Shown one piece after another: positions 3,663-48,623 of a stretch of DNA of 64,000 nucleotides; position 1 is the stretch's first letter, and the number at the start of each line of letters is the position of its first letter. The notes under the pieces were generated by a model. That model did no database searches. It was not told the DNA's origin and saw only the letters and a program-made list of their open reading frames with translations. A program made the translations under genes and the position numbers. The stretch is from a virus: positions 1-64,000 of the IMG/VR virus record IMGVR_UViG_3300042922_000265; one strand, 5' to 3'.

Positions 3663-4159
3663 ACAGCCACCTCACCGATGCGGAACAGACCTCCCGAGAG
3701 CTGCTCCACCTTCCATCCGAACTTGGCGACGGCCTCCCAGAACGCCTTGAACACGTGCGGCTCGTTCTCGTCGTAGTCATCCAGGACGATCAGGCAGCCG
3801 GGCTTGAGAACCGGCCCCACATGCGTGAAGGCCGTCGTGGTGCTGCTGTAGAGATCGCAGTCGATGTGCACCAGCCCGACGTTGTACCTGCGGAAGGGGA
3901 ACACCGGCACCGTGTCGTCGAACCACCCCTCGACCAGCTGGGCGTTCTCCACCACTGGCTTGGGACACTTCATCGAGCCCGCAGGGAACTCCTCGCGCCA
4001 ATCCTCGGGTAGTCCCTGCCATGAGTCGAAACCGATGACCGGCATGACCCCGGCAATCAGTCGCGTCGAATGCCCACCGGCTACACCGAACTCGACCGCA
4101 ATCCCCTCCGGGTCCAGGCTCAGAGCCTGACGCAGGTCAGGAAACCCTTCATCGCTCAC
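3659..4159 (-). CDS. Class I SAM methyltransferase (TylF/MycF-like)
   Basis: EFGVAGG, GFDSWQGLP, GWFDDT, HIDCDLYSST and LDDY motifs. Confidence 0.85.
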   Translation of the reverse strand: MSDEGFPDLRQALSLDPEGIAVEFGVAGGHSTRLIAGVMPVIGFDSWQGLPEDWREEFPAGSMKCPKPVVENAQLVEGWFDDTVPVFPFRRYNVGLVHIDCDLYSSTTTAFTHVGPVLKPGCLIVLDDYDENEPHVFKAFWEAVAKFGWKVEQLSGGLFRIGEVAV

Positions 4160-4440
4160 TGCTGCTGCTCCCACTTCTGACGCCACCCCTTGGCGCGCCA
4201 CTCACACATACGCTTCCATTTCACCGACCAATGCGGGGCCGCGTCCAGCAAGGACGGCCTCAACACCGCGACCCAGACCGTCTTGCACTCTGGACAGACC
4301 CAGACATCTCCCACATGAGATCGATTCCGATACTCAAGCACATGCTCCTCGTTGGGCCGATGACACCAGTCCTTGGTGCCTTCAGTGTGCTCGAACGGGA
4401 TCTTCTTCTTGCGAACCCAGCCCTGCGGGTTACCGCTCAC
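4156..4440 (-). CDS. Hypothetical protein with a CxxC motif
   Basis: Coupled ORF containing CPEC. Confidence 0.55.
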   Translation of the reverse strand: MSGNPQGWVRKKKIPFEHTEGTKDWCHRPNEEHVLEYRNRSHVGDVWVCPECKTVWVAVLRPSLLDAAPHWSVKWKRMCEWRAKGWRQKWEQQQ

Positions 4441-4751
4441 AGGGTCTCGCGCTTGACCTCGCCGCTACGCTCGTCGGTCCACTTCAGCACATAGCCGTAG
4501 TGGCCACCGCGACCCTCATGCTCGCGCGCGGCGGCTTCCTTGGCCGCGCTCTTGGAGTTGAAGGACTGGGAGACGTAGACAATCTCGTTGTTCTCGCTCA
4601 GGCAGCGCCAGTAGTACTCGCCCGTGATGTCGGGCAATACCTCCAGGATACGCAGCTTCTTGCCTCGGTTCACCGAGGTCGCCTTGTCCCGGCGGCCCCG
4701 ACGGTACGGGGTGAGCTTGGGTACCTCAGTCTTGTCTCGTTGCTTCGCCAT
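4437..4751 (-). CDS. DUF1508/YegP-like protein
   Basis: YYWRCLSENNEIVYVSQSFNSKSAA resembles the DUF1508 consensus. Confidence 0.6.
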   Translation of the reverse strand: MAKQRDKTEVPKLTPYRRGRRDKATSVNRGKKLRILEVLPDITGEYYWRCLSENNEIVYVSQSFNSKSAAKEAAAREHEGRGGHYGYVLKWTDERSGEVKRETL

Positions 4752-6094: not shown

Positions 6095-7744
6095 TTAAAT
6101 CCGGCCAGCCGAGAAATTGCTGATGATCTGCGGCACCGCCGTGTCCATGCCGCTGACATCCAGCGACAGAGGATCGAACGGAGCCACCACCGAGGTTCCG
6201 GTGGAAGTCATCGCACACACGACCAGCCGCGCGTCCGGGTTGACGCGGTTGCGGTACAGCTCCATCACCTGGAAGGGATGGCCGTGACGACCCGCCCACG
6301 TCTCACCGTCGGTGAGGATCACGAACGTGTCGGCCCGGATGCCCTTGGCGATGGCCATCTGGATCGGCTGGGTGACGTCAGTGCCGCCGTTGACCTGCGA
6401 ACGCAGGTACTTGACGTTGTCGTCCAACCGGCGACGGGGCGAGATGTCCAGCGACCACGCACGGGTGTCGAACCCGATGTAGCCGACGTCAGGCTCCGAG
6501 GAACCCACCGCCATGGCCATCACCGCACACGCCTCCAGGCAGGTCAGTGGCATACCGCTGACGCGAGTGCCGCCACCCCACGAGGAGCCCATCGAACCCG
6601 AGCAGTCGATGCCCAGGATCGTGGTCTTACCCGCAGGCTCGATCGTGCCGAGCGAGGCGTAGAACGCATCGTCCAGCGCATCGGTGATCCGACCGACCGG
6701 GGTCCAGGTGCTCGATCCCCGCTCGGACTTGCCCGCCGCGTAGGTGCGCTGTGCCACCAGCAGCTGCATCGGGTGCACGCGGCCCCGCTTGAGGGCCTCG
6801 GCGTCGGTGAGCTGGTTGACCGCCTGGGCTGCCCAAGTGCCATCCCTGCCGTACACCCGCGTCAGACGCGGGAGCTGGCGGATCAGCGCCGTGATCGGCA
6901 TGCCCTTGTCCAGGAGTTCGTCCCAGATGGCAGGCTCGTTGATCCACTTGTCGGGGATCATCTCCCAGGTGACACCGTCGACCTTGAGCAGTTCGGTGAC
7001 CTGCGCGATGGTGTCGACCCGCTGCAGAGCCTCGTAGGCCAGCACGACCTCGGGCAGGGATGCCCGCAGTCGCTTGCCCGCGCGGTCCTTGGTGGTCCGA
7101 CCGGCCAGGTAGTTGTACAGCACCCGGTGGGCGTCGTTCTTGCCCGAAGGGTGGGCCATACGCAGGGCGTCGTTGTGTGCCCAGCCCTCACGCTGCCGGT
7201 ACTTCACCAGCTGGATGGCCAGCTGATCAGCGTCCTTGCCGTCGTACCACTCGCCAACAGCACGCCGGAAAGCGCGACCCCAACCACGGAACTGCTCGGC
7301 GTAGTTGAGGAACTTGAACAGCGAGGTGGCAGTCCGACAGACCTGCGGCAGAGCAGCCAGAGCTGCCTGGCGACCGGCGACGTCCGGGGACGCCGAGGCC
7401 ACTGCCAAAGCGAAGATCGCGGCGTCCTGCTTCGGTGCGCGACCGTTGGTCGACACGTCCACGATGGCCTTGACCAGGGTGAGAGGAGCCTGCTCAGCAG
7501 CCCGCAGCACGACGGCGGCGTTCTCCTTGGTGAGCTGGCGCTCGGAGGTGTAGTACGTACCGCCGTCGGTGCCCAGAGTCAGGAACCGGTGCAGCCGTGC
7601 TTCGTCTCCGATGCTGAAGACGTATCCACCCGCCGCATTCTTGACCTGATCCTTCACCGCAGGACGGCGCTGATCGGTCTTGGACGCAGGCACCGAACGG
7701 GGTGCGCGGGTGCGGATCGACGCGAGCGCGTCATTCTTGGCCAT
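6095..7744 (-). CDS. rsr: Ro60/Rsr TROVE-domain RNA-binding protein
   Basis: NAAGGYVF, RFLTLGTDGGTYY, KYRQREGW.H.D.LR..HP, RVHP and vWA MIDAS DCSGSM...TDGET. Confidence 0.95.
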   Translation of the reverse strand: MAKNDALASIRTRAPRSVPASKTDQRRPAVKDQVKNAAGGYVFSIGDEARLHRFLTLGTDGGTYYTSERQLTKENAAVVLRAAEQAPLTLVKAIVDVSTNGRAPKQDAAIFALAVASASPDVAGRQAALAALPQVCRTATSLFKFLNYAEQFRGWGRAFRRAVGEWYDGKDADQLAIQLVKYRQREGWAHNDALRMAHPSGKNDAHRVLYNYLAGRTTKDRAGKRLRASLPEVVLAYEALQRVDTIAQVTELLKVDGVTWEMIPDKWINEPAIWDELLDKGMPITALIRQLPRLTRVYGRDGTWAAQAVNQLTDAEALKRGRVHPMQLLVAQRTYAAGKSERGSSTWTPVGRITDALDDAFYASLGTIEPAGKTTILGIDCSGSMGSSWGGGTRVSGMPLTCLEACAVMAMAVGSSEPDVGYIGFDTRAWSLDISPRRRLDDNVKYLRSQVNGGTDVTQPIQMAIAKGIRADTFVILTDGETWAGRHGHPFQVMELYRNRVNPDARLVVCAMTSTGTSVVAPFDPLSLDVSGMDTAVPQIISNFSAGRI

Positions 7745-7793: not shown

Positions 7794-7943
7794 AGGTGAT
7801 GCGGACATAGGGGTGCTGTCCGGGTTTTGTACGCGCTCTACCAGACTGAGCTACACCGGCATGTGGTGCCGGTGGAAGGAATCGAACCTCCGACCTCGCG
7901 CTCCTGATGCGATAACCGAATTAGCGATCGGCCCGCATCACCT
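7794..7943 (-). ncRNA. yrlA: Y RNA, YrlA type (Y1)
   Basis: AGGUGAUGCGG terminal stem, GGGCCGA/AUGUCC Ro helix, then T arm (GGAGG UUCGAUU CCUUC), acceptor hairpin and D arm (UAGCUCAGUCUGGUAGAGC). Confidence 0.9.
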
Positions 7944-7962
7944 TTCCTCTATAAAATTTAGC

Positions 7963-8522: not shown

Positions 8523-9407
8523 CTACAGGGTGTGGTTGCCGGTCTTCGCCTTGCCGTGCCAGTCCTCTACCTGTTCGGCGTACCGAGACGCCTGCGGCGG
8601 CACCGGGACGACGTTGCCGTCATCGCCGGTGGACTGGCCGAACTCACCGAACTTGCTCGTCATCCGGGTGTAGGGGTAGTCGGAGGTCACCGGCTTGACA
8701 CCCAGGGCCTCGTCCGACTCGCGACGCAGCTTGTCGGCGTGCTCGTTCATCTGCTCCTCCGACCACCCCGACATGATGTCGTCGGGGTCATTGAAGGTGG
8801 TGTACGCCTCCGGGGAGTTGTCACCCTTGCCCTCCCAGACGTCCTTGAGGCGCTTGTGCTGGGGCTCGATGTCGGTATCGAACATCTGCACCGCGTCCTC
8901 GGAGGGGCGCAGGTGCTCGTGGGGAGTCTCCTGCACGGTGGTGCCCACGATCTGCGGGAACCGGCGTTGGAACTCCTCGAACGTCATGAACTCCGGCAGG
9001 TCAGCGGGGTTGACTTTCGGCACCTCCAGCTTGGCGGAGATCGATTCATCGGAGTACTGAAACGTCTGCGCGGCGGGCTCCGACGTCTCCCGCAGCTCCT
9101 GGTAGGAATCCTCCGGGATAGTCACCGGCTCGGGCTCGGTGGTCTCCACCGGCTTGTACGGGCCGTACCAGCCCGCCGGGAAGGTGACGACCGGCCACCA
9201 CACGTCATCCCTGACCTTGTAGAAGGCCGTAGTGCCGTCAGCGCCATTGAGCGCGACATTGGCGTCCAGGGTCTGAGTCCCCCAGGAGGTCTCGTCATCG
9301 ACAATCTTGCGGACCCAGATCTCATACCCCCAACCGTCAGGCAGGAGTGCGATACGGCGTCCTGCGGGGTCCGGGGTTGACTGCTGGTGCTGCGGCGCTT
9401 CCGCCAT
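8523..9407 (-). CDS. Acidic low-complexity hypothetical protein
   Basis: Long ORF with GC3-rich codons. Confidence 0.6.
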   Translation of the reverse strand: MAEAPQHQQSTPDPAGRRIALLPDGWGYEIWVRKIVDDETSWGTQTLDANVALNGADGTTAFYKVRDDVWWPVVTFPAGWYGPYKPVETTEPEPVTIPEDSYQELRETSEPAAQTFQYSDESISAKLEVPKVNPADLPEFMTFEEFQRRFPQIVGTTVQETPHEHLRPSEDAVQMFDTDIEPQHKRLKDVWEGKGDNSPEAYTTFNDPDDIMSGWSEEQMNEHADKLRRESDEALGVKPVTSDYPYTRMTSKFGEFGQSTGDDGNVVPVPPQASRYAEQVEDWHGKAKTGNHTL

Positions 9408-9726
9408 GGGTTTTCTCCGATCCACTTGGATTGCGGTACCCCTCACGATATGCGATGAATACCGGGTCCGCCTCGACCCTCTGGCGTCGGCGGCGTGTGA
9501 CAACTTGGGTGCTGAGGTAGGCATGCAGGACGACGAACATCAGTCCGCCGTAGAGAGCCAGATCAACGTATTCGGTGGTGAACCCACCGATGATGATGGT
9601 GGCGAGGATAATCACTCCACCAAGGTCCAGCCAACTAACGGCCTGCGACAGCTTCCTGTCCACCAGGAAGTCCACTACTGAGGTCATGTCGCTCTGCTTC
9701 CTCTCGGGCGATGCGGTTTGCGTCAA
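9337..9726 (-). CDS. Small membrane protein
   Basis: Two hydrophobic segments. Confidence 0.5.
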   Translation of the reverse strand: MTQTASPERKQSDMTSVVDFLVDRKLSQAVSWLDLGGVIILATIIIGGFTTEYVDLALYGGLMFVVLHAYLSTQVVTRRRRQRVEADPVFIAYREGYRNPSGSEKTHGGSAAAPAVNPGPRRTPYRTPA

Positions 9727-45142: not shown

Positions 45143-45145
45143 AGG

Positions 45146-45217
45146 TGCAGCCTCCCCGAATCCAACGGAGGTCTCCCAGGTGTTTCACTGGGCGCTCTGG
45201 CACTGAGCTATAGCCGC
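45146..45217 (-). ncRNA. Atypical tRNA-like RNA (swapped D/T elbow, 8-nt anticodon loop)
   Basis: D loop AGUGCCA, T loop UUGGAUU, anticodon loop UGAAACAC. Confidence 0.65.
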
Positions 45218-45222
45218 ATGAT

Positions 45223-45293
45223 GCAGTGCGCACAACCCGTGACGCCGCACCCCCATGAGTGGAGGTGACCAGACTCGAACTGGCCCCCGCTGC
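45223..45293 (-). ncRNA. Circularly permuted tRNA mimic without a Ro stem
   Basis: GCAG, T arm, acceptor hairpin CACCUCCA/UGGGGGUG, D-like arm, CUGC. Confidence 0.6.
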
Positions 45294-45295
45294 TG

Positions 45296-45364
45296 TGCCC
45301 TCGGCAGGAGTTGAACCTGCCAGCTCGCCTTCGGAGGGCGTGCGCCAGATCCGCTGGCGAAGGC
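45296..45364 (-). tRNA. tRNA-Arg(CCG) with a short D arm
   Basis: Anticodon loop CUCCGAA. Confidence 0.7.
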
Positions 45365-45428
45365 ATAGGGCTGATGTCGGTATTGCCCGCCGACACGGTA
45401 CAGATCGGCCTGTCAGCCCAAGCCAGGG

Positions 45429-45503: not shown

Positions 45504-45611
45504 AACACACGGGCATGGGAACGAGGCCGGAGAGGAGGGCTCGAACCTCCATGATTCCTGGTGAGGGAATTTTTAACCAAGTTAACCGACTACTCAATCG
45601 GCCCGTGCGTT
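45504..45611 (-). ncRNA. Y-RNA-like element Y3
   Basis: GGGCCGA...GUCGGUU / AUGCCC; anticodon-like arm followed by a T arm. Confidence 0.75.
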
Positions 45612-45613
45612 TG

Positions 45614-45687
45614 TATCCCGAGCAGGACTCGAACCTGCGGCTTCCACGTTCGTAGCGTGGCACTCTATCCATCTGAGCTACCGGGAC
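45614..45687 (-). tRNA. tRNA-Arg(ACG)
   Basis: Anticodon loop CUACGAA. Confidence 0.9.
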
Positions 45688-45693
45688 ATAGGA

Positions 45694-45828
45694 GAATGGG
45701 CATTTAGCCGTTACCGGCAAGGGACTGGACTCGAACCAGCGACCTCCACCTTAAAGGGTGGCGCTCTACCAACTGAGCTACCCCGCAGAAGGTTGGTTGC
45801 GGGAGAACCGATAACTATCGGCCCATTC
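45694..45828 (-). ncRNA. Y-RNA-like element Y4 carrying a whole permuted tRNA
   Basis: GAAUGGGCCGA...UCGGUU / AUGCCCAUUC; acceptor hairpin, then D, anticodon and T arms. Confidence 0.8.
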
Positions 45829-45832
45829 AACG

Positions 45833-45906
45833 TAGCCGTCCAGGGAGTCGAACCCCGTATCTCCGCCATATCAGGGCGGCGCGTTTACCACTTACGCCAC
45901 ACGGCC
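45833..45906 (-). tRNA. tRNA-Ile(GAU)
   Basis: Anticodon loop CUGAUAU. Confidence 0.88.
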
Positions 45907-47041: not shown

Positions 47042-47173
47042 TGAAGGGCATAAAAGTGCAGCCGATGTTTTTAGGTGTTCTACCACTAAACTACGAGGTC
47101 CGGGGACCCCGGCGGGAATCGAACCCGCGCAACCCGCTTGACAGGCGATAACCGACATGCTGTCGGCCCTTCA
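47042..47173 (-). ncRNA. Y RNA, YrlA type (Y5)
   Basis: UGAAGGGCCGA...GUCGGUU / AUGCCCUUCA; T arm, acceptor hairpin, D arm. Confidence 0.85.
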
Positions 47174-48496: not shown

Positions 48497-48623
48497 GATC
48501 TTGGATATTGCTTGAGGCCGGAACGCCCCGCCAGCACGGTTTCCCGTTGGGGCTGTCCAGACCATGGGTGGTCTGGACTGGAATCGAACCAGTGATAACC
48601 GACTACTCGGTCGACCCAAGATC
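48497..48623 (-). ncRNA. Y-RNA-like element Y6
   Basis: GAUCUUGGGUCGA...GUCGGUU / AUAUCCAAGAUC; T arm, acceptor hairpin, expanded D-like region. Confidence 0.78.

Follow-up and report, generated by a model that had tools for sequence, protein, structure and literature searches.

What is the short RNA gene that lies between tRNA-Ile(GAU) and tRNA-Arg(ACG) in the tRNA array of a Myrna-like phage, and whose counterparts are labelled in GenBank either as a suppressor tRNA or as a serine tRNA? The locus, which we call Y4 (45828-45694, minus strand, inside the tRNA array), belongs to the 64-kb window that we analysed, that is, positions 1 to 64,000 of the virus record IMGVR_UViG_3300042922_000265, the initial part of a 167-kb phage record with direct terminal repeats. 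The closest relatives of the window are the cluster C2 (Myrnavirus) mycobacteriophages Myrna, Phabba and ScoobyDoobyDoo, with around 79% identity in the Y4 region. A preliminary description, made from the letters only, had seen here a complete tRNA permuted at the junction of the T stem and the acceptor and mounted on a Ro stem. Our answer is that Y4 is a real, conserved and structured RNA, that it is not a decoding tRNA, and that it is a new topological variant of the tRNA-mimicking Y RNAs of the YrlA and Yrn1 kind. More specifically, we read it, with a probability of about 0.55, as a Y RNA, one among at least five paralogues in this phage, whose putative Ro60-binding scaffold would carry a whole class-I tRNA that is nicked by RNase P and serves as a non-decoding adaptor.

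On this reading, the scaffold would consist of a terminal helix, the motif GGGYCGA, a spacer, UCGGUU paired to CCGG, and AU-RYCC. The cargo would be a class-I tRNA body opened between position 65 in the T stem and position 66 in the 3' acceptor strand, and therefore the order of the gene would be scaffold, 3' acceptor strand with A-CCA, loop, 5' acceptor strand, D, anticodon, variable and T regions, and again scaffold. Read 5' to 3' on the minus strand, Y4 begins with GAAUGGGC, CGAUAG, UUAUCGG, UUC, UCCCGCA, A, CCA, ACCUUC, UGCGGGG and UA, and continues with GCUC-AGUUGGUA-GAGC, G, CCACC-CUUUAA-GGUGG, AGGUC, GCUGG-UUCGAGU-CCAGU, CCCUUG, CCGGUAA, CGGCUAAAU and GCCCAUUC. Its parts are the following:

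45821-45828, minus: 5' strand of the terminal (outer) helix, GAAUGGGC, forming 8 bp with 45694-45701; two compensatory pairs in the five orthologues.
45817-45824, minus: GGGCCGAU, a predicted motif of the Ro60-binding type, comparable to GNCGAAN0-1G of YrlA and to GGUCCGA of vertebrate Y RNA.
45808-45814, minus: 5' strand of the inner scaffold helix, UUAUCGG, whose partner is CCGGUAA at 45711-45717.
45798-45804, minus: acceptor strand of the 3' type, UCCCGCA (tRNA positions 66-72), encoded upstream; the same in all five orthologues.
45794-45797, minus: discriminator A and encoded CCA (the CCA at 45796-45794); R-CCA is kept in five of five orthologues.
45788-45793, minus: ACCUUC, the loop that closes the acceptor hairpin; by analogy with the YrlA of M. 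smegmatis, an RNase P cut is predicted at its 3' edge, before U45787.
45781-45787, minus: 5' acceptor strand, UGCGGGG (positions 1-7); invariant.
45763-45778, minus: D arm, GCUC-AGUUGGUA-GAGC; none of the 19 columns of positions 8-26 varies.
45746-45761, minus: anticodon arm, CCACC-CUUUAA-GGUGG; its loop has 6 nt, with variation in six of the seven loop columns, and its stem covaries (A-U to G-C).
45741-45745, minus: variable loop, AGGUC; invariant.
45724-45740, minus: T arm, GCUGG-UUCGAGU-CCAGU, with two compensatory pairs.
45718-45723, minus: linker CCCUUG, of which CCCUU is invariant; its pairing with GGGG is disfavoured.
45711-45717, minus: 3' strand of the inner scaffold helix, CCGGUAA; CCGG is common to nearly all the paralogues, the copy at 47169 having UCGG.
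45702-45710, minus: 3' side of the internal loop, CGGCUAAAU; 7 of 10 columns vary, and the end is AU (AC in the metagenome copy), as in most paralogues.
45694-45701, minus: 3' strand of the terminal helix, GCCCAUUC, partner of GAAUGGGC.

All the elements that the preliminary description had listed were found in place on the minus strand, and the five-way junction of its drawing is also what RNAfold predicts. Its anatomy only had to be completed at two points, since a C between UCGGUU and UCCCGCA and the G26 between the D and anticodon arms had been left out. The junction is the minimum free energy structure of Y4 (-56.4 kcal/mol, z = -3.2), none of 200 shuffled sequences being as good, and we are highly confident that this structure holds. 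The acceptor hairpin UCCCGCA/UGCGGGG has 7 bp, one of them a G-U pair. Regarding the rest of the body, the Rfam tRNA model matches 45716-45786 with 48.2 bits, and the standard tertiary positions of a tRNA are all kept (U8, A14, G15:C48, G18, G19, G53:C61, U54:A58, U55 and C56), the D arm providing G18, G19, A14 and a G15 able to pair with C48. Nevertheless, two features of an ordinary tRNA are missing. Firstly, there is no canonical acceptor in place, because UGCGGGG pairs with the downstream CCCUUGC at only 4 of 7 positions, against 7 of 7 with the upstream strand, and the forced in-place fold is worse by 7.5-10.7 kcal/mol in all five orthologues; these same values speak against the switch to an unpermuted acceptor that the preliminary description had considered. 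Secondly, the canonical anticodon loop (7 nt, U33, purine at 37) is not found, as the loop has 6 nt in four of the five orthologues and the only 7-nt loop, CUUGAUC of Phabba, has U at position 37. ARAGORN accordingly calls Y4 'tRNA-???' with a 2-nt anticodon, i.e. a 6-nt loop. As for the inner helix, a local hairpin CCGAU...AUCGG is an alternative that fits all the sequences, but it shows one-sided changes only, unlike the long-range helix, which shows double changes; both may alternate.

Y4 is flanked by two genuine tRNA genes:

45832-45906, minus: tRNA-Ile(GAU).
45613-45687, minus: tRNA-Arg(ACG).

The slot between these genes is occupied by Y4 in five genomes, namely the window, Myrna, Phabba, ScoobyDoobyDoo and the metagenome contig Ga0075464_10000626. 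In GenBank the orthologue appears as 'tRNA Sup TTA' in Myrna (gene 161), 'tRNA-Ser' in Phabba and 'tRNA-Sup(cta)' in ScoobyDoobyDoo (gene 159), and these labels are probably wrong. When the five sequences are aligned, 97.5% of the pair cells hold standard pairs, a proportion that goes down to 37-51% when the partners are slid. Double changes have affected seven pairs, of which the outer helix, the inner helix (A-U to G-C and U-A to C-G) and the T stem have two each and the anticodon stem one. Being based on five related sequences, this covariation is supportive and not a formal test. The upstream acceptor strand and R-CCA are preserved in all five orthologues, with the 3' acceptor strand, the discriminator and the CCA lying upstream of the rest of the tRNA body. 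Furthermore, the pairwise identity among the five genomes is 83-89% for Y4 and 71-83% for the flanking tRNA-Arg; as for tRNA-Ile, the copy of the window reaches 59-64% with its four orthologues, and these reach 88-99% with one another. Y4 is therefore better conserved than the genuine tRNAs at its sides, as would be expected under purifying selection and not of a relic in decay.

The anticodon loop behaves in a different way from the rest of the molecule. It reads CUUUAA in the window and in Myrna, CUUGAUC in Phabba, ACUAUG in ScoobyDoobyDoo and UUUGAA in the metagenome copy, so that the length of 6 nt recurs in four of the five genomes but the sequence does not. Actually, the Y4 elements of Myrna and Phabba are identical throughout, save for three changes that fall within this loop. 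As the 6-nt loop is seen in four independent assemblies, it is not an assembly error. The preliminary description had called the loop similar to that of tRNA-Lys(UUU) but one U short. This is correct for the window, where CUUUAA is the loop CUUUUAA of the phage's own tRNA-Lys(UUU) less one U, but the lysine mimicry is not conserved. We rejected a lysine identity of the whole body, because the closest tRNA of the phage is tRNA-Gly(GCC) with 84%, compared to 78% for tRNA-Lys(CUU).

The other half of the argument is the scaffold, whose presumed protein partner and other copies are located as follows:

6095-7744, minus: gene of a Ro60/TROVE protein of 549 aa, the presumed partner (Pfam TROVE, 90.6 and 64.6 bits).
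7794-7946, minus: canonical YrlA directly upstream of the Ro60 (rsr) gene, with the same scaffold, a 12-bp terminal helix and the acceptor hairpin CACCGGC-A-CCA-CAU-GCCGGUG.
45504-45611, minus: Y RNA that carries just two arms, one of anticodon type with a 7-nt loop (AUUCC-CUCACCA-GGAAU) and a T arm; the inner helix of the scaffold replaces the acceptor, as in Yrn1.
47042-47173, minus: YrlA of canonical topology (variable region, T arm, 6-bp acceptor hairpin, D arm) between tRNA-Glu(UUC) and tRNA-Lys(CUU); Rfam YrlA 33.5 bits, below threshold.
48497-48623, minus: Y RNA with a GGGUCGA scaffold, a T arm and a long GC-rich hairpin; it has orthologues in Myrna, Phabba and ScoobyDoobyDoo.

The module GGGYCGA-N(3-14)-UCGGUU occurs five times in the genome, starting at 7934, 48617, 47169, 45824 (Y4) and 45604, always on the minus strand, which is that of the tRNAs; there was no match on the opposite strand and none in a control with the reversed pattern. 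Myrna, Phabba and ScoobyDoobyDoo have 4-5 modules each, also on the tRNA strand. The 3' counterpart is the same in all copies: YCGG, 8-14 nt ending in AU (AC in the metagenome copy), RYCC and a closing helix. The paralogues covary within the scaffold (GGGC:GCCC versus GGGU:AUCC, while UCGG pairs with CCGG), and their outer helices, of 7-13 bp, lie at the same place with unrelated sequences. In Y4 the long stem that joins both ends, as expected of a YrlA, is made of the 8-bp outer helix and an inner helix of 5-7 bp, with four compensatory pairs between them. Regarding the partner, Y4 shares its genome with a Ro60 orthologue, as is typical of the Y-RNA class, and this protein is 78.6% identical to the 'RNA-binding protein' of Phabba and around 50% identical to the 'Ro-like RNA binding protein' of cluster C1. 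A Ro60 is encoded in 357 phage records. Since the scaffold is common to Y4 and to the YrlA beside the Ro60 gene, we take Y4 to be a Y-RNA paralogue whose cargo has a new topology, and the mounting on a Ro stem that had been proposed finds support. On the basis of this shared scaffold, it is probable that Y4 binds the phage Ro60.

The YrlA beside rsr is the best match of the Rfam YrlA model in the genome, with 36.8 bits, a value under the gathering score of 69 bits. With its 7-bp hairpin and A-CCA in the loop, it is likely an RNase P substrate, by analogy with the YrlA of M. smegmatis. Exact 7-bp acceptor hairpins with A-CCA but with different stems are found in the rsr-adjacent YrlAs of the window (CACCGGC), Myrna (CGCGGGC) and ScoobyDoobyDoo (GGCGGCC), and such a hairpin also occurs in one Y RNA of Gordonia phage Sixama and in Y4. 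In phage ET08 of cluster C1, a GNCGA...UCGGUUAC module of the same type lies upstream of rsr, and the YrlA of this phage is shown in Fig. 1D of Chen et al. 2014 (PMC4201824). Regarding the annotation of the other copies, the orthologue of the YrlA at 47042-47173 is labelled 'tRNA-Asp' in Myrna (gene 166) and is unannotated in Phabba, and the Myrna orthologue of the Y RNA at 45504-45611, with the loop CUCAUAA, is labelled 'tRNA-Met' (gene 163).

How does Y4 relate to the Y RNAs already described? YrlA (RF02553) and Y4 are alike in the terminal stem formed by the 5' and 3' ends with a GNCGA-type motif, in a tRNA-like cargo with canonical D and T arms, in the closed acceptor hairpin and in a genome that encodes Ro60. 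Canonical YrlA is opened at the anticodon, the Ro stem being a continuation of the anticodon stem, and has the order variable region, T arm, acceptor hairpin and D arm, without an anticodon loop (10.1101/312249), as the preliminary description had also pointed out. By contrast, Y4 is opened at the T/acceptor junction, has the order acceptor, D, anticodon, variable and T, and keeps a full anticodon arm. The canonical YrlA topology is that of the paralogues at 7934 and 47169. The second relative is Yrn1 of D. radiodurans, which is oriented the other way round and where an 'anticodon arm' (5-bp stem, 6-nt loop) lies between a degenerate D region and the T arm (PMC4201824). Yrn1 and Y4 coincide in the order of a D or D-like region, an anticodon arm of those dimensions and a T arm. 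Yrn1, which is cotranscribed with a tRNA and bound by Rsr, has its Y stem in the place of the acceptor and lacks a variable arm, whereas in Y4 the 7-bp acceptor hairpin with CCA stands apart, the D arm is perfect and a variable loop is present; the closer analogue of Yrn1 is the paralogue at 45504-45611. Judged by its sequence, Y4 thus joins both types, as a separate acceptor hairpin with A-CCA is combined with D, anticodon, variable and T arms in their usual order, and this places the scaffold between positions 65 and 66.

Two systems outside the Y RNAs also encode the 3' part of a tRNA upstream of its 5' part. The gene of the two-piece transfer-messenger RNA (tmRNA; permuted ssrA) of alpha-proteobacteria and some cyanobacteria has the 3' acceptor strand and CCA upstream of the 5' strand, and removal of the loop between them leaves two base-paired chains with a tRNA-like end. 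Y4 shares this arrangement of the acceptor, whereas tmRNA lacks both an anticodon arm and a Ro scaffold, contains a reading frame for a tag and is charged with alanine. In the permuted tRNA genes of Cyanidioschyzon merolae the 3' part is also upstream, and the splicing machinery, through a circular intermediate, gives ordinary decoding tRNAs. In Y4, on the contrary, only the 7-nt acceptor strand is displaced, the anticodon loop has 6 nt, and the junction is not a bulge-helix-bulge but a Y-RNA stem with an asymmetric internal loop (5-8 nt on the 5' side and 8-14 nt on the 3' side).

Some observations weigh against the Y-RNA reading. The motif of Y4, GCCGAUAG, is one base off GNCGAAN0-1G, the motif close to YrlA's 5' end that has been proposed as the contact of Rsr (PMC4201824), with a U replacing the second A. 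The rsr-adjacent copies of Myrna and ScoobyDoobyDoo read GCCGAACG, an exact match, and the rsr-adjacent YrlA of the window carries the same variant as Y4 (GCCGAUCG). Y4 also lies within a tRNA array, 38 kb from rsr on the same strand, whereas published YrlAs are within 4 kb of it; the cotranscription of Y RNAs with tRNAs has a precedent (PMC4201824). Moreover, the Rfam YrlA model (RF02553) does not recognise Y4. The sole YrlA match that overlaps it reaches 23.2 bits, with a threshold of 69, and covers the T arm of Y4 and the D arm of the next tRNA, and Rfam at a relaxed threshold gave nothing informative for the stem of Y4. The covariation is silent on the acceptor hairpin, the D arm and the variable loop, which do not vary among the five orthologues, and the hairpin is supported by its perfect 7-bp complementarity, then R-CCA, in all five genomes. 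In ScoobyDoobyDoo, 4 nt are inserted between the 7-bp stem and ACCA, and thus their exact juxtaposition is not strictly kept. Finally, the U1-A72 pair and, in the window, the C at position -1 represent a suboptimal context for RNase P.

Regarding the processing, Y4 would be transcribed within the tRNA array and freed when the flanking tRNA-Ile and tRNA-Arg are processed. RNase P would then cut 5' of U45787 in the acceptor hairpin, and the tail would be trimmed to CCA, or the CCA would be rebuilt by a CCA-adding enzyme of the phage or the host. The model for this step is the YrlA of M. smegmatis, which has a 7-bp acceptor hairpin, unusual among the characterised YrlAs, and is cut by RNase P both in vitro and in vivo, its 5' half then ending in CCA (PMC4201824). 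By this analogy, we give the nick in Y4 an even chance, and a free CCA end is plausible. The preliminary description had considered the element unchargeable; as such a nick would free the CCA end, this is not established. A candidate for the last step lies outside the window, where an open reading frame of 399 aa with a PolyA_pol domain (PF01743, 114 bits; 127305-127679, minus) probably encodes, to judge by its family, a CCA-adding enzyme of the phage. The processing would yield an RNA in two pieces, joined by the acceptor and scaffold helices, with a free acceptor end, an intact elbow and a non-decoding anticodon arm. Bound to Ro60, it would present a near-complete tRNA to some tRNA-recognising protein of the host or the phage, either tethering Ro60 and an associated exonuclease to that protein or competing with others for it, two roles that would fit what Y RNAs do elsewhere.

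Among the other explanations, the one that survives best, still an improbable one, is that Y4 is a decoy for host anticodon nucleases of the MazF, VapC or PrrC type, which its exposed, non-decoding anticodon arm would sequester or inhibit, with Ro60 perhaps recruiting an exonuclease or shielding the RNA. Phage tRNA arrays, where Y4 lies, have been proposed to counter defences that deplete tRNAs (PMC10264068). The anticodon loop is the sole fast-evolving part of the molecule, being the only place where Myrna and Phabba differ, and an arms race could yield such a pattern; UUU is present in three of the five loops. Nevertheless, a variable loop on a constant body equally fits a relaxed constraint on a loop that does not decode, and the differences between Myrna and Phabba are so clustered that they could be one mutational event. 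The loop mimics no single anticodon consistently, and the body resembles tRNA-Gly(GCC) and not tRNA-Lys, so that the narrower version of the preliminary description, a bait for nucleases of the lysine anticodon, is not sustained. The laboratory host M. smegmatis, moreover, is presumably poor in such toxins.

We also think it unlikely, and even more so, that Y4 is a chargeable two-piece tRNA, whose nicked CCA end is aminoacylated and which acts in or near translation, in the manner of tmRNA or as a donor of an amino acid, while carrying Ro60. The positions 65/66, where the scaffold helix exits, are on the face of the acceptor/T helix that EF-Tu contacts. No identity set of a synthetase is recognisable, and the 6-nt loop together with the variable 'anticodon' argues against decoding. 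In favour of this explanation are the full acceptor (7 bp, A73 and CCA), the intact elbow and the anticodon arm, as well as the fact that the phage encodes its own tmRNA and a nucleotidyltransferase of the CCA type; the aminoacylation of the cleaved YrlA of M. smegmatis was raised as a possibility by Chen et al. (PMC4201824).

The remaining explanations are the least likely. That Y4 is a functionless, decaying relic of a tandem tRNA duplication recombined with a Y RNA is very unlikely, given that it is better conserved than the neighbouring functional tRNAs across around 20% of genome divergence, that four helices show compensatory changes and that the D and variable regions are invariant. Its distribution is indeed narrow, as far as searched in Myrna-like phages only, and its arrangement (3' end of a tRNA, spacer, next tRNA) and the CCC-UU-GC after the T arm resemble the junction of tandem tRNAs. 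The linker CCCUUG may be a leftover of the ancestral 3' acceptor strand (CCC-UU-GC compared to CCCGC), which would fit an origin at such a junction. The GenBank view, that is, an odd but ordinary suppressor (TTA or CTA) or serine tRNA with the in-place acceptor UGCGGGG/CCCUUGC and flanks that are mere spacers, has on its side the Rfam score, the ARAGORN call at 45716-45786 and the three labels themselves. These labels disagree on the identity of the tRNA, the in-place acceptor and the 6-nt loop fail as described above, and the supposed spacers are conserved, covary and match the Y-RNA scaffold, so we regard this view as highly improbable. Finally, a maturation as in Cyanidioschyzon, where the scaffold would be cleaved, positions 65 and 66 ligated through a circular intermediate and the acceptor loop opened to give a continuous tRNA, would explain why the 3' acceptor strand with CCA is upstream of the 5' strand and why a helix brings the ends together, but it is hardly credible in view of a junction helix with a conserved Y-RNA motif and asymmetric internal loops instead of a bulge-helix-bulge, a scaffold that bears non-tRNA cargos in the paralogues, a 6-nt loop unsuited to a decoding product and a phage genome in which no RtcB gene was found.

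Is the arrangement of Y4 found elsewhere? A pattern scan of the viral contigs of IMG/VR with the scaffold and the D arm gave 19 loci, of which only those of Myrna and Phabba were true, the others being tandem tRNAs. When the scaffold alone was used, more than 119 loci were obtained, mostly chance matches in GC-rich DNA; seven were Y-like, four of them in tandem on the contig L101 and two on L167, and there was no RNA of the Y4 type among these seven. The scan of metagenomes produced 9 loci, two of which, on identical contigs (L187 and L193), represent the fifth orthologue, the remainder being ordinary tRNAs, and all 7 loci of the scan of GTDB genomes were ordinary tRNAs with no Y4 type among them. 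We also ran a covariance model of Y4 against ET08 (cluster C1), Gordonia phage Sixama, Microbacterium phage Pumpernickel and Streptomyces phage LukeCage. The four top partial- or full-length matches, one in ET08, one in Pumpernickel and two in LukeCage, proved on inspection to be ordinary tRNAs with their flanks, a result that covers these four and not Sixama or the lower-scoring full-length matches, which were left uninspected. Therefore, as far as searched, the Y4 topology appears to be limited to Myrna-like phages. In the literature we found no description of the Y4 arrangement, of a Y RNA with an anticodon arm, of a permuted tRNA in a phage, of a Myrna suppressor tRNA or of Y RNAs in tRNA arrays; for the Y4 arrangement this excludes the supplementary tables of Chen et al. 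2014, where the Myrna element could be listed.

Other groups of Y scaffolds were also noticed. An unrelated viral contig (L101, IMGVR_UViG_3300037440_000195) has four tandem Y-scaffold modules with different cargos in around 470 nt (9019-9489), and another one (L167) has two modules. Thus, clusters of several Y RNAs are not confined to Myrna-like phages. Gordonia phage Sixama has, immediately downstream of its Ro gene, a stretch (3929-4560) in which tRNA genes and Y-scaffold RNAs are interleaved; one of these Y-scaffold RNAs forms a 7-bp acceptor hairpin closed by the loop A-CCA-C.

The purpose of the tRNA-like domain of Y RNAs is an open question (Chen et al. 2014; Wang et al. 2018) that becomes testable here, as the culturable M. 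smegmatis phage Myrna offers a natural series of Y RNAs on one scaffold that differ in their subsets of tRNA arms, one of them with a complete tRNA, and hence a direct route to which features of the tRNA the partner reads. In addition, Y RNAs can hide in phage tRNA arrays at a distance from rsr. The labels 'suppressor', 'Ser', 'Met' and 'Asp' of tRNAs in cluster C2 mycobacteriophages would then be misread Y-RNA cargos, which affects the tRNA counts used in studies of codon use and anti-defence in phages. In evolutionary terms, the Y scaffold would have captured a tRNA at a second permutation point, which supports repeated origins of the cargos from the junctions of tandem tRNAs. It could even be speculated, at low odds, that Myrna-like phages use one Ro60 with interchangeable cargos as modular adaptors that show different faces of a tRNA (acceptor, D and T; anticodon and T; or, in Y4, the whole with a free CCA). 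Y4 would then be the first complete tRNA in two pieces, possibly aminoacylatable, that is tethered to Ro60, and it would aim Ro60 and an exonuclease at a tRNA-binding factor of host defence or translation, or shield against such a factor.

Regarding the array itself, it extends over 43.5-49.1 kb on the minus strand and contains 26 tRNA genes and a tmRNA gene according to Rfam and ARAGORN. No promoter-like sites were found in it, and there are only two terminator-like matches, both more than 1 kb from Y4. An encoded CCA is exceptional, being present in only around 2 of the 28 genuine tRNA genes of the window. In around half of the array tRNA genes, where CCA is not encoded, the discriminator is followed by CG(U); one such trailer, ...UACGUUGAA, precedes both Y4 and the YrlA at 47169. 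This suggests either a common signal for 3' processing or duplicated units formed by a tRNA end and a Y RNA. Lastly, the array has a gap of 283 nt (45143-45425, minus) in which no tRNA was called, and which contains two tRNA-like pieces that include a T loop (GGUUCAACUCC and AGUUCGAGUCU), as well as the motif CAGGCCGAU.

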